IMG/VR virus record: IMGVR_UViG_2693429668_000006 | Reading direction: 5' to 3' (one strand) | DNA length: 64,000 bases | From: a virus | Taxonomy: Duplodnaviria > Heunggongvirae > Uroviricota > Caudoviricetes | Part shown: positions 16,167 through 62,815 of the stretch, in pieces | Layout of the letters: every line of letters begins with the position of its first letter | Numbering within the stretch: position 1 is the first letter of the stretch | The notes under the pieces: generated by a model | What the model saw: the letters and a program-made list of their open reading frames with translations, nothing else | Told to the model about the DNA's origin: nothing | Database searches by the model: none | Position numbers and translations under genes: made by a program

Positions 16167-16182
16167 AAACAAATTGTTTTCT
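16167..16182. promoter_or_regulatory. operator-like palindrome AAACAAATTGTTTTCT upstream of helicase gene
   Basis: Member of recurring AACAAnTTGTT motif family. Confidence 0.4.
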
Positions 16183-16190
16183 AGTATTAG

Positions 16191-16940
16191 TTAATTAGAT
16201 AGGGGATCAATAAACCGCCGTGCTTCTTCCAGTTCTTCTGGAAAGTGGGCGGAAATAAGGCGCTCTGGAACGATTTCCATTAGCCAGATAGCGGAGAAAA
16301 TTGCGCGTATGCGCTTACTGCGAGGGATGGTGCGCAAACGCTCCAGAATCCACTCAAAATAGCTTTCCTGAATCGGGTTGAACTGCATGTCTCCCATATG
16401 CTTAAAGCTAACCAGAGAGTCATCCAGACGGGTTGTTGCGCGTCTGGCTAATTTCTCTTCAAATATCTCAATCAGTTCTGGCTGCCACAAATGCTGTGGG
16501 CGAGGCAGCTTGTCCCACAGACGTCGTGCAGCTGCGGAAAGAACAGTGGAGATAAAGTAGTCGTATGAGCAGCAATAGCGATCCGCAAACTGGCGTGCTT
16601 TCCATAGCGACGTTTTATTAGCAGTCGACAACTCCTGATAAGGCAAGCGTTTTAACCCGGTGGTGAACGGAGCTGTTTCAAAGTGTTCACGACCGTGCGT
16701 CAGCATGATATTTGAGTACTGACGTTTGTATGCCTCCGTAAACAGACAGGTGGCCATGAGAGGATGCATATCGCGGTAATCAAACCACTTCGTCTCAAAC
16801 AGTTCAGCCTCGTCTTTGCAGCGCGACAAACCAATGTTTTCAGCAACCCACTTGTCCATAACAGCGGTATTCCACTCTGTCATGAAGTCGTACTGGTCGT
16901 TGTCGATGGTATCGAAAAAGATTTGGCTCATGTGGCTCAC
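16191..16940 (-). CDS. hypothetical protein (replication region)
   Basis: ORF track, 249 aa. Confidence 0.45.
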   Translation of the reverse strand: MSHMSQIFFDTIDNDQYDFMTEWNTAVMDKWVAENIGLSRCKDEAELFETKWFDYRDMHPLMATCLFTEAYKRQYSNIMLTHGREHFETAPFTTGLKRLPYQELSTANKTSLWKARQFADRYCCSYDYFISTVLSAAARRLWDKLPRPQHLWQPELIEIFEEKLARRATTRLDDSLVSFKHMGDMQFNPIQESYFEWILERLRTIPRSKRIRAIFSAIWLMEIVPERLISAHFPEELEEARRFIDPLSN

Positions 16941-17045
16941 CTGGTAGGTAGTTACTTACTTATCACAATGAGCGGATGATAGCGACTGGTGGCAGTTTTT
17001 GGAAGTGGAAACGGAAGGGACTTGTTCTGGTGGGTGTCTTTAAAA

Positions 17046-17104
17046 GACCTGCTTCTGTATATACAAATAATAAGTAACTTATTAAATACATACGGAAGCA
17101 GGTC
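17046..17104. repeat. 59 bp imperfect palindrome with AT-rich core TAATAAGTAACTTATTA
   Basis: Arms GACCTGCTTCTGTAT / ATACGGAAGCAGGTC; related copy at 49164..49218. Confidence 0.55.
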
Positions 17105-17112
17105 ATAATCTA

Positions 17113-18819
17113 TTAATGATTGAGTATTTTATTAACACGCAGCTTATTAAGTGTTGATTTTGAAGCAACTTCCTCCAAAGCTTCTATTGCTTTATCAGTG
17201 ATGCTCTTCTGTTCGTCTGTCGGGTGTTGCATACCCTTGAACTTGAGCATAGTCTCTTCTACTAAATTCAAAGCATCCTGATCACAGGATAATATCCAGT
17301 TTACGTAATCATCTTTAGAAAAACTGTTAAGAATATTCACATCACTATGGTTAAATCTTCCACCAGCTATTTTTTTTATAATTTTATCTAAGTTATAGTC
17401 ATCTGGATTTCTATCTTTCAATTTTTTTTCAATTCTGAAACCTAATTCTTCATTTCCGAAGATCTCTACTCGCAAAGAATTAAATGTAGCATACGCATTG
17501 TCTTTATTAACAAAAGCATCTGCATATGCCTCTATAATATTATTACAATCTCTATCCAATTTGATTAGGACATTTATTAAACCTACGAACTGTCCAATTG
17601 GTATACGCAACAGACTATCGTTAATTACGCGCTCAATTTGAAAAATAAACTCTGATTCATTATCTTTAAAAGAGTTTCTAAAAACATCCCAAATTTTATA
17701 AACCTCACATAAAACCCTATTATCTCTATATTGTTCATTTTTTTCTTTTATTATATTTAGAATATTGCTTTCAGAAGACACATAACCGTTCTTAAGGTAA
17801 AAATCTATATCATCATCGAAAGCACTTTCTGCTCGTTCATAAATAATATCAAGGCTATTAACAAATGAATATACAGAGTTAACTTCTTCCTTTTCATCTT
17901 TATCATCTAACATATAGTCGAATGCATGTATATTTTTGATTGACTCCTTAAATGAAGCATAATCAACGCTAGGAACACCAAAATAGTAAACCACTGAAAA
18001 TAAGACCAATCTATTAATAAAACTTTCTCTAACCTTATCCTCTGCTAACTTTAGCACATCTCTAAATATAACTAGAGATGATTTTATTTTATTTAATATT
18101 CTAATGTTTTTGATGTTTAAATCATTTGCTAGGTTTTTTAACAAAAGAAAATCAGGGTCAGTCTCATAAAAAACTTTTCTTAAGTTTTTCTCAGGCGTGG
18201 GATCGTATTTTATTTCCACATCAATTATTTTTTCTCTATACTCTAAAAACTGTTGTTGTGCAGTTTCTTCATGTAAGTTATCTTCATTTAATATTAGAAC
18301 AACCTTGCAATTTTTTCTTCTTGCCAACTCATCAATTACCCCCATAATCTCTTTAATTTCTAGCGCACTACCTTTTCGTTCAATATCATCAATGCAAACC
18401 AAATAATTATTAACAAATTTATACTCAAGAGATGACAGCAGATTATCAGTTTTGAACCCAAAAAAATCGTTCTTTCCAAAATGTATTAAAAATTTTGACA
18501 AGGAGTTGTATTTCAACCATCCCCAAAACCCATTTCTATAACGAATCATAGTTCGATCCGTTTCAGATAAAATCAGTTCTTTATATTTCTTTTCATTAAT
18601 TGGTGTGGCACAATGATAAAGAGCTTTTTTAATGTCTCCAATAGAATTTATTCCAAACAAAGAAACATATGAATATGCATTAAAATCTAATTTTTTAGAA
18701 TGTTTAGTATAAAAGCTATTCCAATAATGCGTTTTACCTACTCCCCAATTTCCTTTTATGACAGCAACCCGATGATCTGAGTCCAAAAAATTTTTTAAAA
18801 ATACTTCTATCGATTCCAT
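17113..18819 (-). CDS. KAP-family P-loop NTPase (candidate defence or abortive-infection protein)
   Basis: N-terminal Walker A KGNWGVGKTHYW matches KAP signature GxWGxGK[ST]; 568 aa; strongly AT-rich relative to neighbours. Confidence 0.55.
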   Translation of the reverse strand: MESIEVFLKNFLDSDHRVAVIKGNWGVGKTHYWNSFYTKHSKKLDFNAYSYVSLFGINSIGDIKKALYHCATPINEKKYKELILSETDRTMIRYRNGFWGWLKYNSLSKFLIHFGKNDFFGFKTDNLLSSLEYKFVNNYLVCIDDIERKGSALEIKEIMGVIDELARRKNCKVVLILNEDNLHEETAQQQFLEYREKIIDVEIKYDPTPEKNLRKVFYETDPDFLLLKNLANDLNIKNIRILNKIKSSLVIFRDVLKLAEDKVRESFINRLVLFSVVYYFGVPSVDYASFKESIKNIHAFDYMLDDKDEKEEVNSVYSFVNSLDIIYERAESAFDDDIDFYLKNGYVSSESNILNIIKEKNEQYRDNRVLCEVYKIWDVFRNSFKDNESEFIFQIERVINDSLLRIPIGQFVGLINVLIKLDRDCNNIIEAYADAFVNKDNAYATFNSLRVEIFGNEELGFRIEKKLKDRNPDDYNLDKIIKKIAGGRFNHSDVNILNSFSKDDYVNWILSCDQDALNLVEETMLKFKGMQHPTDEQKSITDKAIEALEEVASKSTLNKLRVNKILNH

Positions 18820-18870: not shown

Positions 18871-19230
18871 TCACCCTTTCTTCATCAACTCGCGTTTAAT
18901 TTCATCGGTACGCATCGTGACATCGGCAGCTGTGATCGCCTCGTTAAGTTTCACGATGTCCTCGATTTCCTGCGGTGTCTTCTCCGCAAGATGGAAAATA
19001 GCAGCACGAATCACGTCAGAACGAGTGAACTTCTCGAAGCGAGGGATGAACTTCATCATCTCCAGCAGTTCGAAGTATTCGTCCTCCAGTGACATTGTGC
19101 GGCTTTTAATTTTCTCTTTGCCACGAGTCGGGCGTCCCTGTGGTCTGACTGGTTGGCGCAAAGGAGTTGTGTTCTTAGCCGGTGCATCAGGCTCTTTGCG
19201 CTTTGCTAGGTCACCCATTTTCATGGACAT
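18871..19230 (-). CDS. small partition protein (ParG-like ribbon-helix-helix centromere-binding protein)
   Basis: 119 aa, immediately downstream of ParA with overlapping start/stop; RHH-like C-terminal segment. Confidence 0.45.
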   Translation of the reverse strand: MSMKMGDLAKRKEPDAPAKNTTPLRQPVRPQGRPTRGKEKIKSRTMSLEDEYFELLEMMKFIPRFEKFTRSDVIRAAIFHLAEKTPQEIEDIVKLNEAITAADVTMRTDEIKRELMKKG

Positions 19231-19898
19231 TATTCTTCTTCCTCCAGACTCAACAGATAATCTACAAATTCTTCAAACTCGGCTTCCGCCTTTTTGTCGC
19301 GCTCGCTACCGGTCATTTCAAAGATAGAACGACCAGACTCTTCCGCATCATCATAGACGTTGCGGTTATATAGATTGACTGGCGCAGACTCGATGCCAAA
19401 CGTCTCAACAATCTCTTTAGCCGCCAGAATGCGAGACACTTGTGATGGCAAAGCCGGGCACTGGTTCATGACCGCGCGGACCTTCACTTTATCGTTTACA
19501 TTACGAACATTGTCGATAATAGGATCGATGTCACGCAGAGATTTCAAATCACGACGCTTAGGACGAAGCGGGATAATGATAACGTCGGCCATCAGCATCG
19601 CTTGTCGCTGAATTTCGGAGTCAAAGCCACCAGCATCTACCACTACAAACTCAGCTCTACCCTGAAGCGATTTTAGGTGCTTAATGATGTCATCCTGAAC
19701 GTATGCAAAAGGAATCAGCTCAAGGTCTTCGTTCTGTCGACGGTCTTCACACCAGCTTGTTGTCGTGCGCTGAATATCTATATCAGTGATATAAACCTTC
19801 TTCTTCTTTTTGACTTTCAGGCAAACGGCAATTTGCTGGGCAACGGTGGATTTGCCAGGCCCGCCCTTTGTGCCGCCAACCACAAAGATCTTGGTCAT
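19230..19898 (-). CDS. ParA-family partition ATPase
   Basis: Deviant Walker A VVGGTKGGPGKST at N-terminus; 222 aa. Confidence 0.75.
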   Translation of the reverse strand: MTKIFVVGGTKGGPGKSTVAQQIAVCLKVKKKKKVYITDIDIQRTTTSWCEDRRQNEDLELIPFAYVQDDIIKHLKSLQGRAEFVVVDAGGFDSEIQRQAMLMADVIIIPLRPKRRDLKSLRDIDPIIDNVRNVNDKVKVRAVMNQCPALPSQVSRILAAKEIVETFGIESAPVNLYNRNVYDDAEESGRSIFEMTGSERDKKAEAEFEEFVDYLLSLEEEE

Positions 19899-19933: not shown

Positions 19934-19950
19934 AAACAACTTGTTTTCTT
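19934..19950. promoter_or_regulatory. operator-like palindrome AAACAACTTGTTTTCTT upstream of parA
   Basis: Recurring AACAAnTTGTT motif; adjacent palindromes GTACGGTGATATGCCGTAC and GGCTATAGCC in the 19898..20178 intergenic region. Confidence 0.4.
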
Positions 19951-20216: not shown

Positions 20217-20486
20217 ATGTCAGCACTAAAAAAGCAGCGCATCGATTTGAGATTAACCGATGACGATAAAAGCATCATCGAGGAAGCTGCCGCAATGTCT
20301 AACCAGAGCATTACTCAGTTTATGGTTAGCAGTGCATCTGAACGTGCCGTGAAAGTTATAGAGCAACACCGTAGACTAGTTCTGAATGAAGAATCCTGGA
20401 ATCTGGTTATGGACGCTATAAGCAATCCTCCGGCACCGAACGACAAGCTGAAACGAGCTGCTGATCGTCTGAAAAGCATGGAGTAG
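20217..20486 (+). CDS. DUF1778 / TacA-like antitoxin
   Basis: 89 aa, MSALKKQRIDLRLTDDDKSIIEEAAAM...NPPAPNDKL; SD AGGAGG before ATG at 20217; immediately upstream of GNAT gene. Confidence 0.65.
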   Translation: MSALKKQRIDLRLTDDDKSIIEEAAAMSNQSITQFMVSSASERAVKVIEQHRRLVLNEESWNLVMDAISNPPAPNDKLKRAADRLKSME

Positions 20487-20493
20487 TTTACTC

Positions 20494-21015
20494 GTGAGCA
20501 ATACAACGATAGAGATTTTCTCTGGAGAGAAAGATTATGATCTAAACGGTTTTGATTGCGGCGAAGAGTCACTAAACGCCTTTTTAGCCAACCACTTAAA
20601 AAGGCAGCATGAGGGAAAAATTCTTCGTGCTTATGTGCTTTGCACTCAAGAAGAAAGGCCAAAAGTGTTAGGATATTACACTTTGTCAGGTAGTTGTTTT
20701 GAAAAGGAGTCCTTACCTTCAAGAAGCAAACAAAAGAAGGTTCCTTATCGGAATGTTCCAAGTGTTACTTTGGGTAGGCTGGCTTTGGACAAGTCCCTTC
20801 AAGGTCAAGGATTTGGCTCAATGCTTGTAACACATGCAATGCGCGTTGTGTACAATGCATCTCTTGCTGTAGGCATTCATGGACTTTTCGTTGAGGCGTT
20901 AAATGACAAAGCCAAGGCGTTTTATAAAAGTTTAGGCTTTATCCAGCTGGTTGGTAACAACGAGCGTTCTTTGTTCTATCCTACAAAATCTATCGAAAAA
21001 TTGTTCGAAGAATAA
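20494..21015 (+). CDS. GNAT-family acetyltransferase toxin (TacT/AtaT-like)
   Basis: 173 aa GNAT fold with ...LQGQGFGSMLV... acetyl-CoA motif; paired with DUF1778 gene; GTG start. Confidence 0.65.
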   Translation: MSNTTIEIFSGEKDYDLNGFDCGEESLNAFLANHLKRQHEGKILRAYVLCTQEERPKVLGYYTLSGSCFEKESLPSRSKQKKVPYRNVPSVTLGRLALDKSLQGQGFGSMLVTHAMRVVYNASLAVGIHGLFVEALNDKAKAFYKSLGFIQLVGNNERSLFYPTKSIEKLFEE

Positions 21016-47158: not shown

Positions 47159-48415
47159 CTATCGAGAACCACCAAGAATAACACGGTTTTTGACTGGATA
47201 CCTACGATGTACTGGATAGCCCAATGCGTCTGCACTATGCTCAATGCCACCTGTCTTATCCATATCTCGTGTTCCAGGCTTGTAGATGACTTTTTCCAGT
47301 GAATCAATCAAATGCTTGCACTTCGGATCGATATACAGCCGGATATCTCCAGATGCGGTCATCAGCATTCGGTTAACAGCATTAACACGATCCGCAATTG
47401 GCGGGTGCTTTTTCGAATAATCGACACGTAAGAATCCCTTCTCTTTGAATATGTCGACGTCAGACTCCCCGCGAGCATGTTGGCGATAAGCACCTGCCGG
47501 ATCTGGAAATACCGTTATCTGTGATTTCCAGCGCCAGAAGCGTCTCTCAAGCTCATCACAAACCTCTGCCGTGTTAGAGGAAAAGAGCACCAATTCATCA
47601 ATTGCCCATAGCTCACCATTTGGCTGAGGTTGCAAAATTACTGAAGACATCGGGTCAATGTTGAAGTCCTGCCCTACCCATATAGGCAACCGAGGGTTGA
47701 ACTGAAGCGGTTTTACATGCACGTTACGATCGAACGGGTAGTAAACGCGCCCGGACATGTTCTCAAAGCTCGCCAGGTACTCCTGAGCGAACGATTTCGG
47801 GTCCATATCGTTCTTAGCAGCTTCAATTTCCGCCGTAGGTACAAACGGAGAATCGGCAGTTACAAACTGCCAGCTCTTCCACTGTCCCTTTCTTTGCAGC
47901 TCTACGTTCTGGCCTATAGTCCACAGTTTGTGAAATTCCGAGAAGCCTTTTGGCGTACCAATGATCAGTGCACCGCCGCGTGTCGATGAAAGAGTAGGTC
48001 GTAACACCTTGTACCAGGTGTCAGCCTTCATATCCTGAAATTCATCAAGCACTACAAAATGCAACGCTACGCCGCGCAGAGTGTCAGGCTTATCAGCACC
48101 TTTGAGGGCGATCTCCGAACCGTTCTTCAACACGATTGTCATCGTGGTGTCGTTCTTTTTCCTAACCCACTTACGAGGCAGAACTTCCTGTAGATCGTCC
48201 CACAAAATCTGGCGAGCCATCTGGTAAGTAGGAGCGACATACCAGACTCTTTGCTTTTTTTCCTTTGCCGCCGCACGAATAATAGTGGAGATCGACAACC
48301 GGGATTTTCCCCAGCGTCGACCAGCACAAACAACTTTAAATCGATGCGGAGACTGGAAGACTTTCATCTGTCCAGAATGCAGTTGCACAAGACTGAGCGA
48401 GGACGGGATTGCCAT
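47159..48415 (-). CDS. terminase large subunit
   Basis: Walker A VVCAGRRWGKS, Walker B-like HFVVLDEF, C-terminal nuclease-like region. Confidence 0.75.
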   Translation of the reverse strand: MAIPSSLSLVQLHSGQMKVFQSPHRFKVVCAGRRWGKSRLSISTIIRAAAKEKKQRVWYVAPTYQMARQILWDDLQEVLPRKWVRKKNDTTMTIVLKNGSEIALKGADKPDTLRGVALHFVVLDEFQDMKADTWYKVLRPTLSSTRGGALIIGTPKGFSEFHKLWTIGQNVELQRKGQWKSWQFVTADSPFVPTAEIEAAKNDMDPKSFAQEYLASFENMSGRVYYPFDRNVHVKPLQFNPRLPIWVGQDFNIDPMSSVILQPQPNGELWAIDELVLFSSNTAEVCDELERRFWRWKSQITVFPDPAGAYRQHARGESDVDIFKEKGFLRVDYSKKHPPIADRVNAVNRMLMTASGDIRLYIDPKCKHLIDSLEKVIYKPGTRDMDKTGGIEHSADALGYPVHRRYPVKNRVILGGSR

Positions 48416-49047
48416 TATTCGTCCTCCCCTTCACTTCCATCATCTGTCGCATCAAATTCGCTTAGAGCTTCTTCTTCCAACGTCTCAAGCAATTCGTCAT
48501 CGATGATTTCAGGCTCGTCGTCTTCCTGACGTAATTTCGCCACCTGGGAAGGCGTAAGCTCACCAAATACCAGGTTCGGAATTTCTTCCTCGTCATTTTC
48601 CGCATGATCCATGCCCAATGCTTTGGACGAAACTTCAAAGCATTTTGCAAGGGTATTACTGGCTCTCTGTAAGCTCTTGAGAGAATCCTCAATCGCCCCT
48701 AAAGGCTTACCCTCACGTTTGGCCGTAGTGACTTCGACCATCACCATCTGCCCCAACGCATACGCCCAGCCGTCATAACGTGTACGACGTTCTTCTATCT
48801 TTTCCGCACGGGCTTTAGCGCGAAGCTCTGCGTCAGATTTAAGAGACTCACGAACCATCTTCCCAACAGAGTCCGCGCCTTTCTCTAATCCTCGCTTTTT
48901 GAAATGTCTGGAGAGTGTTTCACGACGAATGCCGTACTCTTCCTCCAGCTTTGAGAGTGTATATTCGCCTGACGTCCATTTGGCTTCAGCTTCGGCCCAC
49001 TCCGCTGGTGTCAGGCGAGTTTTTACCTCGTCTTTTTCGACCGTCAT
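48415..49047 (-). CDS. terminase small subunit (putative)
   Basis: 210 aa, N-terminal HTH-like region, acidic C-terminus; start/stop overlap with large terminase. Confidence 0.5.
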   Translation of the reverse strand: MTVEKDEVKTRLTPAEWAEAEAKWTSGEYTLSKLEEEYGIRRETLSRHFKKRGLEKGADSVGKMVRESLKSDAELRAKARAEKIEERRTRYDGWAYALGQMVMVEVTTAKREGKPLGAIEDSLKSLQRASNTLAKCFEVSSKALGMDHAENDEEEIPNLVFGELTPSQVAKLRQEDDEPEIIDDELLETLEEEALSEFDATDDGSEGEDE

Positions 49048-49086: not shown

Positions 49087-49127
49087 AAAACAACTTGTTT
49101 ACTGCATCTGCTAACCAACTTGTTTTC
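49087..49127. promoter_or_regulatory. two operator-like palindromes (AAAACAACTTGTTT and AACCAACTTGTTTT) upstream of terminase genes
   Basis: Recurring AACAAnTTGTT motif. Confidence 0.4.
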
Positions 49128-49242: not shown

Positions 49243-49509
49243 TTACATCACCAGTAACTTCGCTTTGGCTCGACCTAAAGTGGTTAACCCAAGAGTCCGG
49301 CGGTGATAGCGATTGTCACTGCGTTGGCGCGTATGCCCTTTCTCCACCAGCCCCTTTTTTATCAGAGCGCGAATTGAGAACTGGATACTTTGCTTGGTTG
49401 TCTTGTACGGCAAAACTTCAAGCAATTCGTCCAGGTCAAGTAGATGACCTCGCTCATAACCGAGATTGAGCGTTTTGATGATGTCCTTTTGTTTGTCGGT
49501 TAACGTCAT
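49243..49509 (-). CDS. small winged-helix-like DNA-binding protein (putative)
   Basis: 88 aa, basic; tentative. Confidence 0.35.
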   Translation of the reverse strand: MTLTDKQKDIIKTLNLGYERGHLLDLDELLEVLPYKTTKQSIQFSIRALIKKGLVEKGHTRQRSDNRYHRRTLGLTTLGRAKAKLLVM

Positions 49510-50409: not shown

Positions 50410-51071
50410 GAATGGACCTCATCATGACTACCATTGTGATATTCCACCTTCACGCGTTCTTTGTAGTGCTTGGTGATCTGCATATCAGGGCGCAGCGCGT
50501 TCTTCAGGTCTTCGTGAGTCGTCGCCACCATTACCGTCGCACCAACCTTTCGAGCGGCACGCTGGAGGTTAGACGCCACAACCTGAGCGGTTACACGGTC
50601 GAGAACAGCGCCGAACTCGTCAGCAGCCCATACTTTAGCGCCTGACTCAATCAGTTTGGCAATCTTGAGACGATATTTCTGGCCGTCTGACATTTCAGAA
50701 GGCTTGCGAACAAACAGATATGCATCGTTCAGACCAGCCATAGATAACAACCCAAGCGCATCACTGGTCGTTTTGCCCAACTGATCGATGACGTTAACCT
50801 CATTATCGAAGGTAAAATCATCGATGGAGGCTACAGACAGCCCTTCATCCTTCATCTGTCGTTGCAACTCGCGCAGCACAACGGATTTGCCGGAACCGGA
50901 TTGGCCGGTGATGTACACCACATCGCCCTGCTTCACTTCCAGCTCCAGATTGTCGTAAAGCGTCCACTCTTTTTCGTCCAGGCCAAGCCCGAACGACTCA
51001 GCGATTTCCAACGTGCGCGTGGTTTTATTTACGCGTGTCTGAAACGATACGTTGATGATGTATTTGCTCAT
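50406..51071 (-). CDS. ABC-type ATPase (soluble, single nucleotide-binding domain)
   Basis: Walker A GQSGSGKS, signature MSDGQKYRL, Walker B KVWAADEF, H-loop VATTHE. Confidence 0.65.
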   Translation of the reverse strand: MSKYIINVSFQTRVNKTTRTLEIAESFGLGLDEKEWTLYDNLELEVKQGDVVYITGQSGSGKSVVLRELQRQMKDEGLSVASIDDFTFDNEVNVIDQLGKTTSDALGLLSMAGLNDAYLFVRKPSEMSDGQKYRLKIAKLIESGAKVWAADEFGAVLDRVTAQVVASNLQRAARKVGATVMVATTHEDLKNALRPDMQITKHYKERVKVEYHNGSHDEVHS

Positions 51072-51736
51072 GCAGCCATCTCCCCGGAAGAGATCTTCTC
51101 CGCATATGCCACAAATGCGTCTACCCCGCTTTCTCCCGTCATTTCTTCCATATGGGCAAGCAAATCACCAACAACAATGGCAGAGCCAGCAGGGAGCGTT
51201 TTAAAGCCCAATACGTCGACAACACGTACTTCTTCCGCTGCAACTTCACGACTGATCTCGGTGTGTTCATCCTTCTGTCGTTTAGTTTCTTCGCCAAGAT
51301 CGATAACTAGCGAGTCGGTGTCCATTTCTTCTGTCATACTGCCAACGAGAACATTCAACTCACGCTCTTCAAAGCCGAAAACCTCGATATCGTCCAGAAC
51401 AAGCGACTCAAGCTCTTTCTGTAGCTTAATTGCATCGTAATCAATGCTGGCAAGTCGGTTATCTTCAAGGCGCTTCGCACGAACCTCGTCATCACTGAGA
51501 TCATCGCGAACAATAACCGGTACGCGCTCAAGTCCAGCAAAAATTGCAGCCTCACGGCGGCCGTGGCCAGTAATAATTACGTCGTTCTTATCGACCGTAA
51601 TTGGCTGGTCAAATCCGCGCTTTTTAATGGCTGCGGCTAGATCTCGGATCTGCTGTTCATCATGCTTTTTGGCATTCATCTCATAGGGAATAAGATCTGC
51701 CGGGTCGCGATATACGATTTCAAACTTTTTGGTCAT
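51068..51736 (-). CDS. ParB-like nuclease domain protein
   Basis: ParB/Srx motif ITGHGRREAA; acidic C-terminus; start set at ATG 51736 overlapping upstream stop. Confidence 0.55.
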   Translation of the reverse strand: MTKKFEIVYRDPADLIPYEMNAKKHDEQQIRDLAAAIKKRGFDQPITVDKNDVIITGHGRREAAIFAGLERVPVIVRDDLSDDEVRAKRLEDNRLASIDYDAIKLQKELESLVLDDIEVFGFEERELNVLVGSMTEEMDTDSLVIDLGEETKRQKDEHTEISREVAAEEVRVVDVLGFKTLPAGSAIVVGDLLAHMEEMTGESGVDAFVAYAEKISSGEMAA

Positions 51737-52434
51737 TACATACGCTCCTTGTAGTAGTCGACCAGCCACACCAGAGCCTCACCAGCGTTCTCCATTTCAT
51801 TACCGGTGTTAATAGCCTGCTCTTTGATGATGTTTTTTATGGTTTCTGCAACACGATCTGACGCATCGAAAGTTACTTTGAAGCGCATGGTCTGATGTTC
51901 CGCACCCACACGTTCGGTTTTCTCTCGTTTGTCGGTATCGACAGGCTCATCACTACCACGAGACAACGCCTCCAGTGCTTCAAGGTCGATTGCCGCCTCT
52001 TTTGCTAAAACCATCGAGATTTCGTCGTCATACGGAGCGATTTCAGACAGTTGATAGTCAAGTTCTGACTGAATTTCTTCAATGAAGCGTTGCAATGCGA
52101 TTTGGTCGTCTTCACCGTATCGCTCGTTGTCCACCAGTGACATCTGTTTAGCTACGACATCGCTAATTTTGCCCACAGAAAGCACCGGAACCGTTGAAAT
52201 TCCTTGCTCAATAGCAGCACGCCAGCGATGTTCGCCGCCGAGGATTTCAAAAAATCCATCTTCAAGTTCACGAGCCAAAATTGGCTTAAAAAAGCCCAAT
52301 TTTTCGATAGAACCTTTCAGTTTTTCAAAATTCTGCGCACCAACCGAATTGGTGTTCCAGGTATTCGGGCGAAGGTTGGCAACATCAACCTGCAAAATCG
52401 TGATTTTTACATCCATTTTATTGCTACAATCCAC
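51736..52434 (-). CDS. ParB-like nuclease domain protein (second copy)
   Basis: ParB/Srx motif ILGGEHRWRAA. Confidence 0.55.
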   Translation of the reverse strand: MDCSNKMDVKITILQVDVANLRPNTWNTNSVGAQNFEKLKGSIEKLGFFKPILARELEDGFFEILGGEHRWRAAIEQGISTVPVLSVGKISDVVAKQMSLVDNERYGEDDQIALQRFIEEIQSELDYQLSEIAPYDDEISMVLAKEAAIDLEALEALSRGSDEPVDTDKREKTERVGAEHQTMRFKVTFDASDRVAETIKNIIKEQAINTGNEMENAGEALVWLVDYYKERM

Positions 52435-54060: not shown

Positions 54061-54339
54061 ATGAGTGAAAAGAAAACAACTTACTGTCAGGTAGCATTGT
54101 CTGATAAGGCCAATGACAAACTTGGAAAGTTTCAAGTGAAACTAAAAGAAAAAAATATCAAAATGTCTAAGGCTGAAGTCATAAATACCATTCTGGAACA
54201 ATTGACAATGGCCGACTTTGACAAGGTTATATCTTCTGTCGGGGCTTCCGCTAAGACTCGTGAGAAAATCATGCGTATCTATGAGAACTCTAATATGACA
54301 AAGGAAGATCTCGAAACGCTATTAAGCAGATTAAAATAA
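54061..54339 (+). CDS. hypothetical small protein
   Basis: ORF track, 92 aa. Confidence 0.4.
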   Translation: MSEKKTTYCQVALSDKANDKLGKFQVKLKEKNIKMSKAEVINTILEQLTMADFDKVISSVGASAKTREKIMRIYENSNMTKEDLETLLSRLK

Positions 54340-54834: not shown

Positions 54835-55359
54835 ATGACAACCAAAGATATTACCTACGGTATCCAAGCTGAACTCTGGCCGCGAGATTACACTAACGTT
54901 GAAAAACTACTGATGTTCTGGCGCAGAGAACAAATTCCTGTAAGGGTCACTCTCGAAGATGGCCAGGCGTTTTGCATGTACGTTTATGGCCTCATGCCAT
55001 CTCGTAACAAAGTTGACCTTTGCCCAGCCCCTTTTGACAAAGAAAATCGTATAAGGCTCCCACTTGAACGCATTAGTACAATTGAATCAGGTGTGGTTGA
55101 CAGTATCGCTCACGATTTCAAAGGTCGACTAACAGTTCACCCTGATTATGTCGATAATCGGCCATCACGCCGCGATTTTTTTGCAATTTGCAACCAAGCC
55201 TACAAAGCAAACAAATCTATAAGGGTGTACATGGCGGATGGCCGTGAAATTGAGGGGGTGTCAGCAGGCGCAGATGCTTGTCAGGTTACACTACGTGTCG
55301 AGAACGGTAGAAAAATAGTTGTTTTGTTCGATTGGGTTGAACGAATTTTGCCTTTTTGA
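54835..55359 (+). CDS. hypothetical protein; start uncertain
   Basis: ORF track (54757 start overlaps previous gene); internal ATG at 54835. Confidence 0.4.
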   Translation: MTTKDITYGIQAELWPRDYTNVEKLLMFWRREQIPVRVTLEDGQAFCMYVYGLMPSRNKVDLCPAPFDKENRIRLPLERISTIESGVVDSIAHDFKGRLTVHPDYVDNRPSRRDFFAICNQAYKANKSIRVYMADGREIEGVSAGADACQVTLRVENGRKIVVLFDWVERILPF

Positions 55360-57722: not shown

Positions 57723-57725
57723 CAG

Positions 57726-58208
57726 TTACACGCCATCAAGGATGTGGATGCGGTTGCTTGCGTATACATTCAGCATAAAGTTAGCGCAAAACAGTTTCCA
57801 TGTATCAACGCCAGCGGTATACGTAATGTTTTTGCATTTAATCGCATTGTTGGCGATCCGCATCCCCTGCGATACTGCTTCATCGTCGGAAAATTTGAAC
57901 GACGATTGAGTTTTAATCCAGACAGAAATCTGCGTAGCGAACTCAATCAGCTTGGACTGGCAGAATCGCCCGGAGCGCACCGGAAAGACGAACGTTCCGA
58001 ATCCAGAATTTACCACATATGCTTTCTCAAATACCCGCGAGTAACGACGATTGCCAATGATGTCGCGTGCAATAATGCATTTTTCTTGTGCTGACAGTTC
58101 TACCGTCTCATTGTCGCGCCATGCACCAAGTACTCGTTTTTCAATGTCAGAGAACGTTACAGCGATATTGCCATGTGCGGGTGCGTTTACAGTAGCGATA
58201 AAATTCAT
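57726..58208 (-). CDS. hypothetical protein (accessory array)
   Basis: ORF track, 160 aa; own promoter/operator motif at 58227..58260. Confidence 0.5.
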   Translation of the reverse strand: MNFIATVNAPAHGNIAVTFSDIEKRVLGAWRDNETVELSAQEKCIIARDIIGNRRYSRVFEKAYVVNSGFGTFVFPVRSGRFCQSKLIEFATQISVWIKTQSSFKFSDDEAVSQGMRIANNAIKCKNITYTAGVDTWKLFCANFMLNVYASNRIHILDGV

Positions 58209-58226
58209 GATTAATTCCTTATCGTA

Positions 58227-58260
58227 AATAACAAATTGTTTTCTTGTTGGTGTTAATTAT
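58227..58260 (-). promoter_or_regulatory. conserved promoter-operator element (extended -10 TGCGATAAT plus AACAAATTGTT palindrome)
   Basis: Near-identical element repeated at 58714..58750 and 60851..60890. Confidence 0.5.
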
Positions 58261-58412
58261 CGTTGTACGAATAAGGCGTCAAAGTGGAAAGTTGCGGTAG
58301 CCGGACGGGAACAGGTGGGTTTGTCGGTTGCCTGGAGGTAAGAGGTTGGTGTTTTTAGCCTGCGGGAAACAGGATGGTCATTTAAGGCCACCAGCATTGG
58401 TGGCCTTAATCT

Positions 58413-58700
58413 TTAGTGGAGCAGACCGATGTCGATGGTATCCCCTGAATCATCCACACGGATCATCAGCATGGCAAAGGCGTTTAGTGGATAGCTTGCG
58501 TGCCATTCAGGGAAGCGGTCATCTCGCATGAAGTCGGCAATGTCGTAAACGCATCCCTCAAAGTGGAAGAATCGCGTGCTTACCTGCTCGTCATAATCCA
58601 CATGATCCATTTCTTGCTGTTCTGTTTCCGGCAAGTCCAGCCATGATTCAAGAAATACATTTTGTGCTTTAGGGGTAATGGTGAAATCAGTCATGAGCAT
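58413..58700 (-). CDS. hypothetical small acidic protein (accessory array)
   Basis: ATG at 58700 with SD GAGG; ORF track start at 58826 would overlap the promoter element. Confidence 0.4.
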   Translation of the reverse strand: MLMTDFTITPKAQNVFLESWLDLPETEQQEMDHVDYDEQVSTRFFHFEGCVYDIADFMRDDRFPEWHASYPLNAFAMLMIRVDDSGDTIDIGLLH

Positions 58701-58883
58701 ATCCTCACTGCGTAAACATGTTGTTTTCTTGTTGGTGTAATTATCGCAGTGTAGATAAGGCATAAAAGAAGTTAATACAGGCTGAATACACAAGAAAGGT
58801 TCTGGAAGTTGATAGCCAGGTTTCAAACTAACCTTCGGTTATTAAAAGTCATTTAAGACCACCAATGCTGGTGGCCTTAATAA

Positions 58884-59027
58884 TTATCGCCCGATTACGC
58901 TAAGGATCTTTTCCTCAACTGATTTGTTGTTGCGACTAAACTGCCTTGCGTATCTGATGACAGAAGAGGCGTTTTGCTTTCTGACCATCTCGGCTCTTTC
59001 CTTCAGGCGTTTCTTGAAATCGCCCAT
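58884..59027 (-). CDS. possible small basic protein (47 aa)
   Basis: Hand-translated MGDFKKRLKERAEMVRKQNASS...; below ORF-track cutoff; hairpin 58855..58878 downstream. Confidence 0.25.
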   Translation of the reverse strand: MGDFKKRLKERAEMVRKQNASSVIRYARQFSRNNKSVEEKILSVIGR

Positions 59028-59029
59028 AT

Positions 59030-59404
59030 TTACCACCAGGCGCAGAAGGTCAGTCTGTTATTGTGAAAGTCGTGGTTCTTAATCAGATCTTCCACAAGCT
59101 CTTTCAACTCCCCCACATCATGCCAGTAACCTTCATCGTACTCCTGACTGCCGAAGAAAAAACCTTCCCGGGTAGGCAAGTACTCTTCGCAATTACTTTC
59201 GTTTATGTGCATCAAATGAGCCTTCAGAAAACAAATGTCATTCATCGTTAATTCTAAAAGCTCACAATTTTCGACTTCACCTACGTTGCGCTCCATCCAC
59301 CCAACGAGCGCATTGAACTTACGGAAGTAAGCAACCTGCTTTCTGGATGCCTCGTTATTCAGATCGTTTTTAGGCTGTGTCTCGATATAGATATCAAGTC
59401 CCAT
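59030..59404 (-). CDS. hypothetical protein (accessory array)
   Basis: ATG at 59404 with SD AAGGAA. Confidence 0.4.
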   Translation of the reverse strand: MGLDIYIETQPKNDLNNEASRKQVAYFRKFNALVGWMERNVGEVENCELLELTMNDICFLKAHLMHINESNCEEYLPTREGFFFGSQEYDEGYWHDVGELKELVEDLIKNHDFHNNRLTFCAWW

Positions 59405-59490
59405 GATGGTTTCCTTATTAAGTTGCTTCAGTGAAATCATTTTCACAAATCAGATAAGGCAGAAAACAAATTGTTATCGGGCTTAATAAA

Positions 59491-59517
59491 ATGGCGCGGT
59501 TTACGCGCCATTTAAAG
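59491..59517 (-). terminator. rho-independent terminator after gene 59522..59917
   Basis: Hairpin ATGGCGCG-GTTTA-CGCGCCAT followed on minus strand by TTTATT. Confidence 0.5.
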
Positions 59518-59521
59518 AGGA

Positions 59522-59917
59522 TTAAGCGAATACGCTTTCAGGGATTAAGGTGTCGGCAGGAATGCCAGAGGTAATGCGCAGGCCGTACTGACCAATCCAG
59601 GTAGTGTTGGTATTCAGGTTGGAGGCGAATACGGTGTTAACCATATTCATCATGGTTTCAAACACCTCTTCATCAACCTGGCGGAAGTAGCTCTCGATTT
59701 TCAGCAGCAGCGGGTCAGTTGCATCGAGAATGGACTGGTATTGAGTCGCGTACTCGCCGTCGGAGTCATCACCTTTACGCACGATCGTACTGGCCTGTAC
59801 TTCGGCGCCAGTTTCGGTGTTGTACGTAACAACGGTGATTTTTGCCACATTCTTACCTTCGGCGGTTTCAGAGGCATAGTAAACATCAACTGTCAGTTTT
59901 TCGCGTTTAATGGTCAT
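59522..59917 (-). CDS. hypothetical protein (accessory array)
   Basis: ATG at 59917 with SD GGAGAG. Confidence 0.45.
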   Translation of the reverse strand: MTIKREKLTVDVYYASETAEGKNVAKITVVTYNTETGAEVQASTIVRKGDDSDGEYATQYQSILDATDPLLLKIESYFRQVDEEVFETMMNMVNTVFASNLNTNTTWIGQYGLRITSGIPADTLIPESVFA

Positions 59918-60043
59918 TTCACTCTCCGTAGTGTATTGGTTATTTTTATATTCTATGATCGTAAGTATGTACTTACAATACAAAAAAGCCCCGTAAGGAT
60001 GGCGGGGCTGTCGTACTGTCGACTAATTACCACTTGCACATTA

Positions 60044-60355
60044 TCAGGCTATTGCCATCACTGATGCTCTCTGAATCTCTTGCTGGGCCACGCGGTTAAC
60101 TTCCATCAAGGCCAGTTCGAGCTGATGTTCCGGCCACATTCTTTGAAATGCCACCCAGCCTTTTCCACGCTGGCGACGAACATTCATTACATAACGAGTA
60201 AAGGTGTTTTTATCGAAAGACACCGCTGTTTCACGGAACAGACGAATAGAGGTTCCATTGGCAACGATGTCCAGCAAAGTTAATTGAGCAACCAGCGCAG
60301 GCTTCTCTTTTCTCTTCTGGTCTTTGTCCAGACCAAGAACCAATGATTTTTTCAT
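60044..60355 (-). CDS. hypothetical basic protein, possible DNA-binding (accessory array)
   Basis: ATG at 60355 with SD GGAG; 103 aa. Confidence 0.4.
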   Translation of the reverse strand: MKKSLVLGLDKDQKRKEKPALVAQLTLLDIVANGTSIRLFRETAVSFDKNTFTRYVMNVRRQRGKGWVAFQRMWPEHQLELALMEVNRVAQQEIQRASVMAIA

Positions 60356-60508
60356 CACAACTCCGTAAACAACTTGTTTTCTCAATGGCGTAAATAATAC
60401 CAGTAAGAAAACGGCTACAAAGCATAATGATCAGGTGCATGATCGATATGCAGGTTCTTCCCTGCGGCTATAGAGAAATTAAGCCAGCAATGCTGGCTTT
60501 GGTTGGGA

Positions 60509-60838
60509 TTACGCGAATACCTCAAGAAACTCCTGAACGTCCCAATGCTGGACGAGGTGAAGATAGACCTTAGAAATCACGTCATTTTCGCTATCGCATG
60601 TGAAGTAGTACTTCTGGCTGCGGTTGTATGTGTCCACACAAAATTCGCTCATATCCATAAAGTCAGCATCTTCACCCATGTCGCAAATCATCAAAGCAGG
60701 TGCATCATCACGAGTCATCAGCTCAAGCACCCACCGCGAATTGATCAGAGTGGAAGACCAACCTTCCAGCTCATAGAACTGGTCAAACTCTTTTTGAGTC
60801 AATTTCTTGATTTGGTTGATGTCGATATGTGCAAACAT
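60509..60838 (-). CDS. hypothetical acidic protein (accessory array)
   Basis: ATG at 60838 with SD AAGGA; the first ATG in the ORF lies inside the conserved operator motif. Confidence 0.4.
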   Translation of the reverse strand: MFAHIDINQIKKLTQKEFDQFYELEGWSSTLINSRWVLELMTRDDAPALMICDMGEDADFMDMSEFCVDTYNRSQKYYFTCDSENDVISKVYLHLVQHWDVQEFLEVFA

Positions 60839-61202
60839 AAAGCAATCCTTAAACAACATGTTTTCTTGATGGTGTTATTATCGCAATAACGCACAGGCGA
60901 AAAAGGATTTTATTCCGGTGAATGTGGTTTTGGCAGTGAGTTTTCAGGTTCAGTACCGAGAACACTTTTTACATTATTCTGATTTAGTGGCCGAAGGTGG
61001 CTGGTGGGCAGAATAATCATCTCCCCGAAAACCTACTGAAATCGATTGTGACCCGTTGGCTGTCTGGCACAATTACGCTGTAGCTGGGCATTCAGAGGGA
61101 ATCCAGCGGTAAGTAAGTTCGCCTGCACGTGAGCGCCTCTCTTCTTCCCGCACATTACAGGTGGGTAGCCGCAACTCTCCCTCACGCTATACCGGTACGC
61201 CG

Positions 61203-61337
61203 CCGTTCCTGAACCGGCATCGAGCCTTTTCCCGAAACCCACACAGGCAACTCGACCGTTTCCCTGAAAACCTCCAGCCGTTCCCCGAAGGCAACCCAGC
61301 CGTTTCTGTAGCGGGATGCAACCTTTTCCCTGTATGG
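61203..61337. repeat. iteron cluster 2 (six CCGTTTCCC-type repeats phased about 21-22 bp)
   Basis: Repeats start at 61203, 61225, 61257, 61278, 61299, 61322. Confidence 0.6.
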
Positions 61338-62400
61338 ACCGAAGGCTGACCGTAGGGGTGTTACGGGGGATAAAATCAGGAGTTGAATAAATACGAAAAA
61401 GGAGGCGACACCCCTCCTTCCCTCCCCACTTATACATACCTGGCTTCTTCGCTATACATGTTGTGTTTTATCTGTCTCAACCTCTCTATAGGCGTTAATG
61501 CTCACTCCTTCCAGAATGTTCTATACGGCGACTATTTCTGTTGGTGAATTGGGCGTGTTGTTCTCTCTGTCGGTGTAAATGGTTTCGTTCGTTTTGCGGT
61601 GGTTCTTCTATGGGGTGTTCTCGTCGTTTTGGTGATTGTTCTTCTCCGTGTATGGAGTAATGGCAGGTGGGCGATTGCTTTCGTTATTGTGTTTGAGTTG
61701 TTTGTCTGGAGTGTGTGAAAGGCTTTTGTAGTTATTCGTGTATTGGGTAATGGCGTTTCCCGTGATTGTTATGTTTCGTGTCTTTTGGGATTGAGAGAAA
61801 CCTTGCGGTTACAGGCTTCGTTGGGGTTTCAGCGGTTCAGGTGTTTCTTCGCTGTTTGGGTAATGGCGTGTCGTGGGTATCGCGCGTATGAATGTTTTCG
61901 GATTGCCTGTGAAAGTTAGGTTGGTTGTCCGGTAGCCTGGGGAGAAGAGGTGGGTCTTTTCGGTAGCCTGCCATAAAGAGGTTGGTTGTTTTGGGGAATG
62001 GCATGTGTGTTATTTAGTTGTTTTGTTATGCCTGAAAATAAGTTGTTTATATGGTTGTGTAACGCAACGGGAACGATTTTGAGCGTGTGTTTTTGTTGGT
62101 AGTGTGTTGGGTCGTCTGTGGTGAAAATTGGACGCTGTGGCGCTGTCTGCTGCGTAGAATTACGGGTATAAGCAGTGATGTGTGAAAACGTCAATTTTTT
62201 AGACCAAATCGGATGAAAGCGTTGATGTTTCGTTGATCTGTTATTCAGTTGTTTTCTTGATTGTATAAACAACTATAACTTATTGATATTTAAGGATGTG
62301 ATTGCGGGTATGGAAGGGGAGTAGTGGCGATCAACGGATTCTTATAGAAAAGAATCAAATTGTGACCGCCATTATCAACGGTTTGAATCTGTTTGCAGAT

Positions 62401-62700
62401 TTACCAGTTCCAGCACTCAAGCCCTTCAACGACCGGCGCACCACAATCAAAATGTACAGAGTCAAAGCCTACATCAAGTACTTTCTGAATGTTAGCAATC
62501 GCGCCTTCGGATATACCATATCGACGCAAGTCGTCTTTCCAGACATCATCCTGTAACCCGGCGTGGACAATACAACCGCCGTCAATTTGCGAAACCCAAT
62601 CCAGCTCATTGCTTGCGATCATGAATCGGCGAGCATCTTCCTCTGATGTATGAGATGAGCTGATCAATGCCACCTGGTAGGCTTGGGTAATGTTCAACAT
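62401..62700 (-). CDS. hypothetical protein (last gene of element before host junction)
   Basis: ATG at 62700 with SD GGAG; operator-type motifs at 62713..62779 upstream. Confidence 0.4.
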   Translation of the reverse strand: MLNITQAYQVALISSSHTSEEDARRFMIASNELDWVSQIDGGCIVHAGLQDDVWKDDLRRYGISEGAIANIQKVLDVGFDSVHFDCGAPVVEGLECWNW

Positions 62701-62815
62701 TTCAACCACTCCAAAACAAGTTGTTTTCTTATGTGGTTTATTATCTCCATCAACAAAAGGCAGAAAACAAATTGTTTTAGGTACTGTGTAAATCAGAAGG
62801 GATTGTGTCTATATG

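Follow-up and report, generated by a model that had tools for sequence, protein, structure and literature searches.

A palindromic, operator-like motif recurs at promoters of SSU5/pHCM2-type phage-plasmids and may be bound by a partition-type protein

The plasmid-prophage P1 holds scattered operons off with its immunity repressor C1, which acts at more than 12 promoter-overlapping operators; these operators are asymmetric, 17 bp long and bound by a monomer. The gp71 stoperators of mycobacteriophages L5 and Bxb1 are asymmetric 13-bp sites, bound by the immunity repressor, that block elongation. Partition proteins also serve as global regulators, such as KorB of RK2 and SopB of N15, itself a phage-plasmid, both of which are large HTH ParB proteins, and proteins of the ParG/omega type repress their own par promoter. 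In lysogens, most phage genes are silent anyway. The omega protein of pSM19035, of the type Ib ribbon-helix-helix kind, has an unstructured N-terminus and sites that overlap three promoters (PMC3074150), and FljA-type repressors are reported to prevent the translation of fliC mRNA (PMC2652032). In the literature we searched, the silencing of about 100 kb of lytic genes during plasmid replication in SSU5/pHCM2-type elements is not described.

The stretch of DNA analysed here, 64,000 nucleotides in full and hereafter the window, belongs to an SSU5/pHCM2-type phage-plasmid near phage Cyrano (pLF82), and this copy carries aac(6')-Ib-cr. Clinical E. coli, Salmonella, Klebsiella and Enterobacter commonly carry such phage-plasmids, and one search returned 748 matching plasmid records. 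The initial annotation of the window had pointed to a recurring palindrome at promoter-proximal sites and called for a motif scan with a shuffled control. The scan bears out a non-random recurrence: exact AACAANTTGTT (AACAAnTTGTT) occurs eight times in the window against 0.21 expected, with none of 100 shuffles reaching eight, and with at most one mismatch there are 13 copies against 4.39 expected. The longer half-site AGAAAACAA occurs 13 times in the window against 1.31 expected. The half-site reads (A)GAAAACA with a 3-bp spacer, the gene-strand consensus is AGAAAACA-AnT-TGTTTa, and the duplex form of the site, as written for binding, is AGAAAACAATTTGTTTA. The positions first given for the copies are right to 1-4 nt, except that the one placed at 62246 is a half-site only, and the AAGAAAACAAnTTGTTT context noted around the dyad is real and reads on the minus strand, that of the genes. 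We distinguish class A copies, which follow a -10 box, from class B copies, which lie at a -35 box. The sites in the window are as follows.

1615..1625, minus strand: class A, one mismatch (AATAATTTGTT), 20 nt before the start of a CobT-like gene
16168..16178, minus strand: class A, exact, 20 nt before the start of the DnaB-like helicase gene (14807..16147)
19935..19945, minus strand: class A, exact, 36 nt before the start of parA (19230..19898)
49089..49099, minus strand: exact, the more downstream of two paired copies, within the leader of the small terminase gene (48415..49047)
49114..49124, minus strand: class A, one mismatch (AACAAGTTGGT), 25 bp upstream of the 49089 site and directly after a -10-like TAATTAAACACC
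58230..58240, minus strand: class A, exact, 21 nt before the start of the gene at 57726..58208; GATAAT at 58256-58261, with TTGACG 15 bp farther upstream
58715..58725, minus strand: class A, one inner mismatch, 20 nt before an ATG at about 58694
59465..59475, minus strand: class B, exact, after a terminator hairpin and abutting the -35-like TTTTCTGCC of a promoter with TGTGAAAAT
60368..60378, minus strand: class A, exact, 12 nt before the ATG at 60355
60852..60862, minus strand: class A, one inner mismatch, 13 nt before the ATG at 60838
62037..62047, minus strand: weak site, one mismatch
62249..62257, minus strand: half-site only (AGAAAACAA), the other arm degenerate with three mismatches
62715..62725, minus strand: class A, exact, 14 nt before the start of a DUF5983 gene (62401..62700)
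62766..62776, minus strand: class B, exact, 51 bp upstream of the 62715 site

Every copy is intergenic, as the promoter-proximal placing claimed at the outset would have it, and 11 of the 13 sites with at most one mismatch in the window sit 12-36 nt before a minus-strand start codon, 3' of a -10-like GATAAT or TAATTA. Class A copies, set between this box and the ribosome-binding site, begin 8-15 nt past the box (GATAAT/TAATTA, often extended as TGnGATAAT) and end 12-36 nt before the start codon, and thus cover roughly +3 to +21, a placing that assumes a transcript start set by the GATAAT-type box. The class B copies (59465 and 62766) are a minority, lying at the -35 box and, in paired cases, 51 bp upstream of a second copy; the 62715 and 62766 sites flank the -35 and -10 of a single promoter. 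Equal geometry is found at the helicase, parA, RNR-beta, terminase and CobT-like promoters, none of which is a copy of another, and the motif is the most conserved block in the information profile across aligned promoter modules. The accessory-array promoters are mutual copies of about 55-75 bp. Site pairs have fixed spacings of 51 bp and 25 bp; since the 51-bp pairs sit in promoter modules copied from one another, their spacing may reflect common descent and not selection. The flanks are asymmetric, with AGAA constantly on the upstream side of class A sites. Neither these asymmetric flanks nor the near-universal placing in a 5' leader is required by a symmetric DNA-binding dimer.

We also considered the motif as a structured RNA element or intrinsic terminator. 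The RNA hairpin of the motif has a minimum free energy of 0 to -1.8 kcal/mol, the same as shuffles, and no compensatory changes were seen among motif variants. With negligible hairpin energy and no covariation, this candidate was rejected, and the negligible energy argues for recognition of double-stranded DNA.

The helicase, parA, small terminase subunit and accessory promoters named in the initial annotation all carry the motif, and it is kept in relatives: it occurs at the same promoters in Cyrano, Salmonella phage SSU5, Klebsiella pJN2-26 and the more distant L148, and persists where the flanking DNA of these relatives has diverged. Each genome has 12 exact sites plus near-exact ones, all intergenic, many of them overlapping promoters genome-wide. 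All 12 exact Cyrano sites are intergenic in a genome that is 87% coding, and outside the window the plasmid has four more exact copies of equal geometry (MF554642.1, 11659, 12388, 22611 and 32834). Positions 50-100 kb of SSU5 hold 10 exact copies against 0.10 expected (about 20 sites in SSU5 in total), and the first 50 kb of pJN2-26 hold eight against 0.13. The helicase site is kept in Cyrano (32081), SSU5 (34386, one mismatch) and L148 (11445). The parA promoter and its site are nearly identical in SSU5 and pJN2-26, and in L148 a TTGACC...TATAAG promoter, as read from the sequence, immediately precedes the parA site GAAAACATTTTGTTTTC. At the terminase, the 49089 site is kept in Cyrano (83) and SSU5 (82) and the 49114 site in SSU5 (57), while pJN2-26 has a single site here (38629); the site of the CobT-like gene is exact in SSU5 (42730) and pJN2-26. 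Pairs spaced by 51 bp recur in SSU5 (88320/88371, 93663/93714 and 85603/85654) and in pJN2-26 (24760/24811 and 28540/28591). We also scanned a viral collection for GAAAACAANTTGTTT. Among the matches listed, contigs with at least three copies are about 90-100 kb long, which fits SSU5-type elements; most others are single-copy, and no second phage family that would hint at the binder appeared among them.

Our tentative reading, which we hold as plausible rather than probable, is that SSU5, pHCM2, Cyrano and the Klebsiella relatives share the motif as a DNA operator, that a dimeric repressor encoded by the element binds it, and that the best guess for this binder is a 119-aa protein encoded next to parA. 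The motif's recurrence, position and conservation are observed; both the repression and the identity of the binder are what we infer. A dimer, or a dimer of dimers, would bind the dyad sites and block RNA polymerase at, or just past, initiation, keeping some 17-21 promoters of replication, nucleotide metabolism, packaging, partition and accessory genes low in the plasmid state; at the minority copies, two bound sites would bracket one promoter. A single dimeric regulator encoded by the phage had been suggested at the outset, and it stays the most economical reading because a non-random dyad recurs at the same promoters in otherwise diverged relatives. The binders then named, an XRE-type HTH protein or a small DNA-binding protein of the accessory array, find no support; no array protein matches a Pfam DNA-binding family. 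The candidate proteins, and the palindrome beside the XRE gene, are listed below.

18871..19230, minus strand: 119-aa ORF, overlapping the parA stop; leading candidate binder
2112..2125, no strand assigned: separate palindrome GGTAAGCACTTACC beside the XRE gene (2157..2543)
54061..54339, plus strand: 92-aa protein of the uvsW operon (phrog_1466), with a pattern resembling ribbon-helix-helix; candidate
49243..49509, minus strand: 88-aa winged-helix-like protein just upstream of the terminase promoter; candidate
8518..8733: 71-aa winged-helix-like protein; candidate
54835..55359, plus strand: FljA-family protein (PF03614), likewise of the uvsW operon, predicted tandem Hfq/Sm-like fold; rival candidate

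From its sequence, the 119-aa protein looks like a ParG/omega-like centromere-binding protein, with a basic N-terminal tail of 40 residues followed by a strand-helix-helix-like segment (KSRTMSLEDE...FTRSDVIRAAI). Its ParA partner is small (222 aa), has only MipZ/CbiA/AAA_31 matches and no N-terminal DNA-binding domain, and the order of small ParA followed by a small gene, typical of type Ib partition, is found here. In addition, a perfect site lies between the -10 and the parA start and is kept in four lineages, overlapping the par promoter as in type Ib systems, a layout that would allow autoregulation. Between E. coli and Klebsiella the predicted DNA-binding segment does not vary, nor does it in homologues with as little as 48% identity. 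This invariance parallels that of the motif. Profile searches with the 119-aa protein gave no Pfam match and no PDB sequence match, and hhalign against approximate ParG and CopG sequences was uninformative. A search for contiguous repeat arrays, upstream of parA and past the end of the par operon, found none, only single dyads. A search for the gene outside an SSU5-type backbone, where it could be told apart from the other candidates, showed one and the same gene order in every contig examined.

RNA-seq of the Cyrano lysogen puts 13 of the 16 genes that come first after a motif near background (5-13 against a median of 9.8), and the operons of XRE, repA, toxin-antitoxin pairs and uvsW, all motif-free, are on (PMC9928086). 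Motif genes are mostly silent, but so are most motif-free genes, and the lysogen data do not discriminate. The 119-aa gene reaches 89 against the median of 9.8. It is part of the parA operon, which is expressed at 50-89 despite its perfect site, so repression there would be partial at best.

How this arrangement compares with the described systems depends on the feature examined. Omega (pSM19035) and ParG (TP228) are likewise encoded after a small ParA; they are small proteins whose N-terminus is unstructured and which have a ribbon-helix-helix, features seen here as a sequence pattern only. The inverted pair of 6-7-bp subsites matches the minimal inverted di-heptad of omega. Also alike, sites overlap several promoters, a layout that couples partition, copy number and other functions in omega and ParG (PMC3074150). 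Theirs, however, are arrays of 7-10 contiguous repeats at 3-6 loci, whereas here some 20 single dyads are spread across 110 kb of phage genome, downstream of the -10. Many copies overlapping promoters genome-wide recall P1 C1, yet the sites here are dyads, and the immunity-type XRE protein appears to use another palindrome. Tens of short intergenic sites in one orientation, many downstream of start sites, recall the L5/Bxb1 stoperators, but the sites here are symmetric and tightly coupled to the -10 box. KorB and SopB likewise have palindromic partition-protein sites dispersed over the replicon near promoters; unlike them, the two ParB_N-domain proteins here (51068..52434) are silent in the lysogen and lie beside packaging genes. 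If the 119-aa protein binds the motif, the dispersed sites could double as scattered centromere sites, and a partition protein as binder would mechanically couple the segregation of the plasmid to the silencing of the prophage. With about 20 promoters, the system would also offer an experimental handle in which a single protein acts on a single 17-bp site to control a defined gene set.

The same operator mechanism could work through another binder. We think it highly improbable that the XRE-type immunity repressor (2157..2543) binds the motif and directly controls all motif promoters, even though it is an HTH protein, reaches 96 in the Cyrano lysogen and has in C1 of P1 the precedent of an immunity repressor with many scattered operators. 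Its divergent control region with the cro-like gene (1906-2156) contains no motif at up to one mismatch and holds instead GGTAAGCACTTACC, a perfect palindrome adjoining the XRE start and kept with the XRE gene in pJN2-26; SSU5 has no XRE homologue and yet has about 20 motif sites, and in Klebsiella, where the motif has not changed, the protein shares only 56% identity. Its own conserved palindrome and its absence from the motif-keeping SSU5 make XRE an unlikely binder, and from sequence comparison GGTAAGCACTTACC is probably the XRE operator, apart from the AACAAnTTGTT system; the conserved XRE-linked palindrome, as written for affinity comparison, is GGTAAGnnCTTACC. It is less far-fetched, if still unlikely, that one of three other conserved proteins, of 92, 88 or 71 aa, is the binder. 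The 92-aa protein is strong in the lysogen (114 against 9.8), is kept in SSU5 and pJN2-26, and has an N-terminus that reads strand-helix-helix-like (TYCQVALSDKANDKL...MSKAEVINTILEQL); however, it is 52-63% identical among relatives in which the motif is invariant, it varies at would-be DNA-facing positions (Y8 to H, A12 to Q), and its AF2 model is of low confidence (pLDDT 57). The 88-aa protein, 84% conserved in Klebsiella, shows a weak full-length match to the LexA DNA-binding domain (E 0.07), and its gene is the immediate upstream neighbour of the paired sites at the terminase promoter, but both it and the 71-aa protein are at background in the lysogen. None of the three genes carries a motif copy at its promoter. 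If the 88- or 71-aa protein were the binder, the motif would be a lytic-phase timing switch and not a lysogenic lock.

The main rival reading, which we consider unlikely, moves the motif to RNA. The FljA-family protein would bind the 5' leader just upstream of the ribosome-binding site and block translation, as FljA of Salmonella does with fliC mRNA, the A-rich and U-rich arms contacting different faces of a tandem Hfq-like ring, so that the palindrome in the DNA would be a by-product. The protein at 54835..55359 matches PF03614 over its full length (E 2.5e-84), and its predicted model has two helix-plus-five-strand repeats, whose superposition on Hfq gives target-normalised TM-scores of about 0.70-0.86 and an rmsd of mostly 1-2.6 A; the gene is core to the SSU5-type family and expressed in lysogens. 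The 11 sites before a start codon also lie in the leader in a fixed flank orientation, if transcription starts after the GATAAT, and within the fliC leader of Salmonella, AACATCAAGTTGTAATTG has CAAGTTGT in common with the motif, at 19 nt before the AUG. The FljA-fliC pair thus resembles this system in a homologous PF03614 protein, a leader target before the ribosome-binding site and the CAAGTTGT core, but FljA has one known target against some 20 sites here, and some of these lie outside any leader: the two class B sites among the 13 are upstream of the -35 and hence outside the mRNA of the gene they precede. Recognition of a single strand has no need of the exact C/G symmetry, the unstable hairpin and missing covariation described above count against it, the E. 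coli fliC leader lacks a CAAGTTGT-type core, the fliC match involves just seven specified bases found post hoc, and the FljA-like protein may be a mere accessory gene that represses host flagellin. Both levels might be combined in a two-layer lock, which we rate as quite unlikely: the DNA operator would act at the start and the FljA-family tandem-Hfq protein would silence escaped mRNA through its transcribed copy, an A-rich and then a U-rich arm before the ribosome-binding site, with Salmonella FljA a domesticated copy of this phage-plasmid regulator and the fliC leader a mimic of the phage site (CAAGTTGT). The Salmonella FljA gene adjoins the phage-derived Hin invertase. Very unlikely, in our judgement, is a motif that is no operator at all but a promoter or initial transcribed sequence read by RNA polymerase or a host factor, or a boundary of cassette recombination. 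The mutually copied accessory-array promoters would suit such a role, as would the asymmetric flanks and the gene content between promoter modules, which differs among Cyrano, SSU5 and pJN2-26. Yet the motif is also present at promoters that otherwise share no sequence, a dyad is atypical of elements recognised by sigma factors, and beyond SSU5-like contigs the matches listed from the viral collection are mainly single. We know of no enterobacterial (E. coli or Salmonella) transcription factor with this consensus.

The motif-associated promoters were missed by a simple sigma-70 scan of 57-64 kb, since 15 bp separate their -35-like element from GATAAT. Several of them show, on inspection by eye, an extended TGnGATAAT -10. 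The motif aids annotation since it marks real promoters and corrects several start codons; downstream of the 59465 site, the true start of the gene is likely the ATG at 59404.

The palindrome AACAAnTTGTT, which the initial annotation had described as recurring at promoters and had tentatively assigned to a single phage-encoded regulator, is real and statistically overwhelming, and it marks a family-wide regulatory site. Exact copies (AACAANTTGTT) occur eight times in the window versus 0.21 expected from dinucleotide-preserving shuffles of the window, none of which reached eight. With one mismatch allowed, 13 sites were found versus 4.4 expected, and the nine-base half-site AGAAAACAA likewise occurs 13 times versus 1.3 expected. 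A 30-bp duplex with the motif reads AAGAAAACAATTTGTTTAA. The positions first assigned to the copies are correct within a few bases, except that 62246 is a half-site only. Four further exact copies with the same surroundings lie in the remainder of the plasmid beyond the window. In the fully annotated genome of Escherichia phage Cyrano (pLF82), all 12 exact copies are intergenic while 87% of the genome is coding, and of the 64 intergenic gaps on the main strand that measure at least 40 bp, about 17 contain one.

The window is part of a phage-plasmid of the SSU5/pHCM2 type. Over 57000-63900, the accessory-gene end, it matches pTIC, an uncultured-bacterium plasmid (MF554642.1), at 100% identity; Cyrano shows about 94-99% identity to the window, and Salmonella phage SSU5 about 81% across two thirds of the window length. 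The same promoters, namely those of terminase, parA, helicase, the CobT-like gene, RNR-beta and the accessory array, carry the motif in Cyrano, SSU5 and Klebsiella phage pJN2-26. SSU5 holds 10 exact sites within 50 kb versus 0.10 expected and pJN2-26 eight versus 0.13, and in the more distant relative L148 the motif is found at the parA and helicase promoters. In an alignment of the sites, information was concentrated in the motif far more than in any other block, and the flanks had drifted. Among the matches listed for a viral collection, a 14-base version of the motif gave mainly single matches outside SSU5-like contigs.

Since most genes lie on the minus strand, "upstream" is used here relative to that strand. 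The sites fall into two classes by their position in the promoter:

Class A, 11 of the 13 sites in the window: site between the -10 box and the ribosome-binding site, layout read on the gene strand.
Class B, sites 59465 and 62766: site abutting the -35 box, after a terminator hairpin and running into TTTTCTGCC, the -35-like element of the next promoter.

A class A promoter begins with a -35-like TTKAYGCC, a 15-bp spacer and GATAAT (often TGnGATAAT; TAATTA at other promoters). The -10 box is followed after 8-15 nt by AGAAAACAAnTTGTTTa, and then by 12-36 nt including the Shine-Dalgarno sequence before the ATG. If the transcription start lies, as is usual, 6-8 nt past the -10 box, the dyad would span about +3 to +21. 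The parA site of L148 reads GAAAACATTTTGTTTTC, and the half-site is therefore GAAAACA with the central AnT as spacer; single mismatches across all genomes fall mostly at these inner AnT positions. Some sites are paired. Sites 62766 and 62715 lie on either side of one promoter, with their starts 51 bp apart, a pair also found three times in SSU5 and twice in pJN2-26. The promoter modules with these pairs are clear copies of one another; their spacing may thus have been inherited and not selected for. The terminase promoter has two sites 25 bp apart (49114/49089), and pJN2-26 shows this spacing independently at its RNR-beta promoter.

We compared these positions with published expression values for LF82 lysogens (PMC9928086). 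Of the 16 genes that come first after a site, 13 are near background (5-13); the exceptions are the helicase (21), CYRAN_111 (25.5) and the parA operon (50-89). The motif-free operons of XRE, integrase, repA, toxin-antitoxin pairs and uvsW are on (PMC9928086). Cyrano is inducible by ciprofloxacin. The pattern fits repression in the plasmid state and is no proof of it, because most motif-free genes are silent too; that the motif is not an operator at all strikes us as quite improbable. A start-site-proximal operator for one element-encoded repressor is the likely general mechanism, a judgement that pools the three versions in which the binder is a protein encoded beside parA, another DNA-binding protein of the element, or the XRE protein (2157..2543).

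The XRE protein had been one of two proposed binders. Its divergent control region (1906-2156) contains no copy of the motif, and SSU5 has no XRE homologue and yet keeps about 20 sites, which makes this assignment very unlikely. The control region instead holds a different perfect palindrome, GGTAAGCACTTACC, at 2112-2125, also present beside the 56%-identical XRE gene of pJN2-26. The other early suggestion, a small protein of the accessory array, fared no better, as no DNA-binding signature was found there. Four further conserved candidates were considered: the winged-helix-like 88- and 71-aa proteins, a FljA-like protein (54835..55359), and the products of

18871..19230, 119-aa candidate, overlapping the parA stop codon
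54061..54339, 92-aa candidate, in the uvsW operon

In type Ib partition systems, centromere binding and repression of the par promoter are both carried out by a small ribbon-helix-helix protein. The ParA of this element is a short MipZ/CbiA-type ATPase, and together with the adjoining small ORF it matches the type Ib arrangement; in a documented case, omega of pSM19035, the sites overlap three promoters (PMC3074150). In the 119-aa protein, a basic tail of 40 residues precedes KSRTMSLEDE...FTRSDVIRAAI, which reads like a strand-helix-helix segment. The versions in SSU5 and Klebsiella are 90-92% identical to it, and homologues with only 48% identity still keep the putative DNA-binding stretch unchanged. 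Every lineage examined has a perfect site at the parA promoter, and in the Cyrano lysogen the gene stands at 89 versus a median of 9.8 (PMC9928086). Searches for its fold gave no Pfam or PDB sequence match and no hhalign support, and no type Ib-like repeat array was found near the par operon. A start-site-proximal operator with this ParG/omega-like protein as leading candidate binder is plausible, and we put it forward tentatively. It is unlikely, though conceivable, that another DNA-binding protein of the element occupies the operator. The 92-aa gene is highly expressed in the lysogen (114; PMC9928086), and its product is only 52-63% conserved with a low-confidence model; the 88- and 71-aa proteins have weak family matches and both genes are silent in the lysogen (PMC9928086). 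The first codons of the 92-aa gene (54071-54079, +) contain AAGAAAACAACTTACTG, a half-site with a degenerate second arm, which may be due to chance because the residues are not kept in SSU5.

The FljA-like protein raises the question of whether DNA or RNA is recognized. The gene (54835-55359, +) is a core gene across the whole phage-plasmid family. Its annotation as an ArsR-family transcriptional regulator in the plasmid record is countered by a full-length match to the FljA family (PF03614, E 2.5e-84) and by a predicted fold that is not winged helix. The AlphaFold model (pLDDT 79) has two helix-plus-five-strand repeats, each giving target-normalised TM-scores of about 0.70-0.86 on Hfq, and the protein is thus predicted to consist of two tandem Hfq/Sm-like domains; we found no literature statement that FljA is Hfq-like. 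FljA-type repressors are reported to block fliC mRNA translation (PMC2652032). The Salmonella fliC leader carries AACATCAAGTTGTAATTG 19 nt before the AUG, with CAAGTTGT in common with the motif, but the E. coli K-12 leader (L014) lacks this. Because of the family membership, the Hfq-like model, the action of FljA on fliC and the shared leader core, a FljA-type protein acting on the motif in the 5' leader is a real rival, although we give it only a small chance. Two features that a symmetric DNA-protein model does not need, the fixed orientation of the AGAA flank and the position of nearly all sites in the 5' leader, also keep it in play, whereas the strict dyad and the class B sites, which lie upstream of the -35 box, argue against it. 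As RNA, the dyad would form at most a 5-6-bp A-U stem of 0 to -1.8 kcal/mol, the same as shuffles, and no motif variant carries a compensating second change; a structured RNA element is therefore ruled out. Three features favour a symmetric protein that reads double-stranded DNA: a symmetry that is exact and extends to the C/G pair, the copies of class B, and the paired sites.

Dispersed operators that silence a plasmid prophage are already known as a kind (P1 C1, N15 SopB, RK2 KorB, omega, L5 stoperators), so no new principle is involved here. No account of this motif turned up in the searchable literature.

Several further features were observed. In Salmonella and Citrobacter fliC leaders (L018 2690-2760, L022, L015), AACATCAAGTTGTAATTGAT lies 19 nt before the AUG and has CAAGTTGT in common with the phage motif, and ATCAA...TTGAT can pair as a 5-bp stem. 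The palindrome beside the XRE gene (2112-2125, kept in Klebsiella pJN2-26) belongs to a second family, GGTAAGnnCTTACC, also present at 52437-52450, 16943-16960 and 5723-5736; degenerate copies lie upstream of the CYRAN_31 homologue and overlap the uvsW/parB divergent promoter at its perfect TATAAT. These sites probably make up the XRE regulon. The leader of the small terminase gene contains, between the motif and the gene start (49058-49086, -), a terminator-like hairpin, AGAGCGC-atggac-GCGCTCT, with GTGTGTTTT directly behind it. The hairpin is kept in SSU5 and pJN2-26, and its presence suggests that late genes need antitermination to be expressed. Tandem repeats of 28-31 bp in the accessory array (58292-58390 and 61927-61998; TAGCCTGG.GAGAAGAGGTGGGT-like) may be either coding repeats or iteron-like.

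For CYRAN_105, _108, _110 and _103 (window 60852, 59446, 58826 and 61916-62272), several of the annotated start codons are placed within the promoter/operator module or upstream of it; an example is the ATG in AACATGTTGTT. Starts 12-60 nt further downstream are better and have a Shine-Dalgarno sequence. CYRAN_103, with two promoter-like modules inside it, may not be a real gene. Window 1-6400 is offset by about 1.3 kb relative to MF554642.1, and an insertion or deletion therefore distinguishes the two; a 442-aa ORF of low GC (34%) lies beside the integrase (4237..5565). Beside the parA promoter region lies an inserted resistance gene, aac(6')-Ib-cr (about 20415-21014, +; annotated in MF554642.1 at 68461..69060). 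The par operon is followed directly by a 568-aa KAP-family P-loop NTPase (17113-18819, -), which may be a defence or accessory cassette and occupies the place of a different gene in Cyrano (CYRAN_30).
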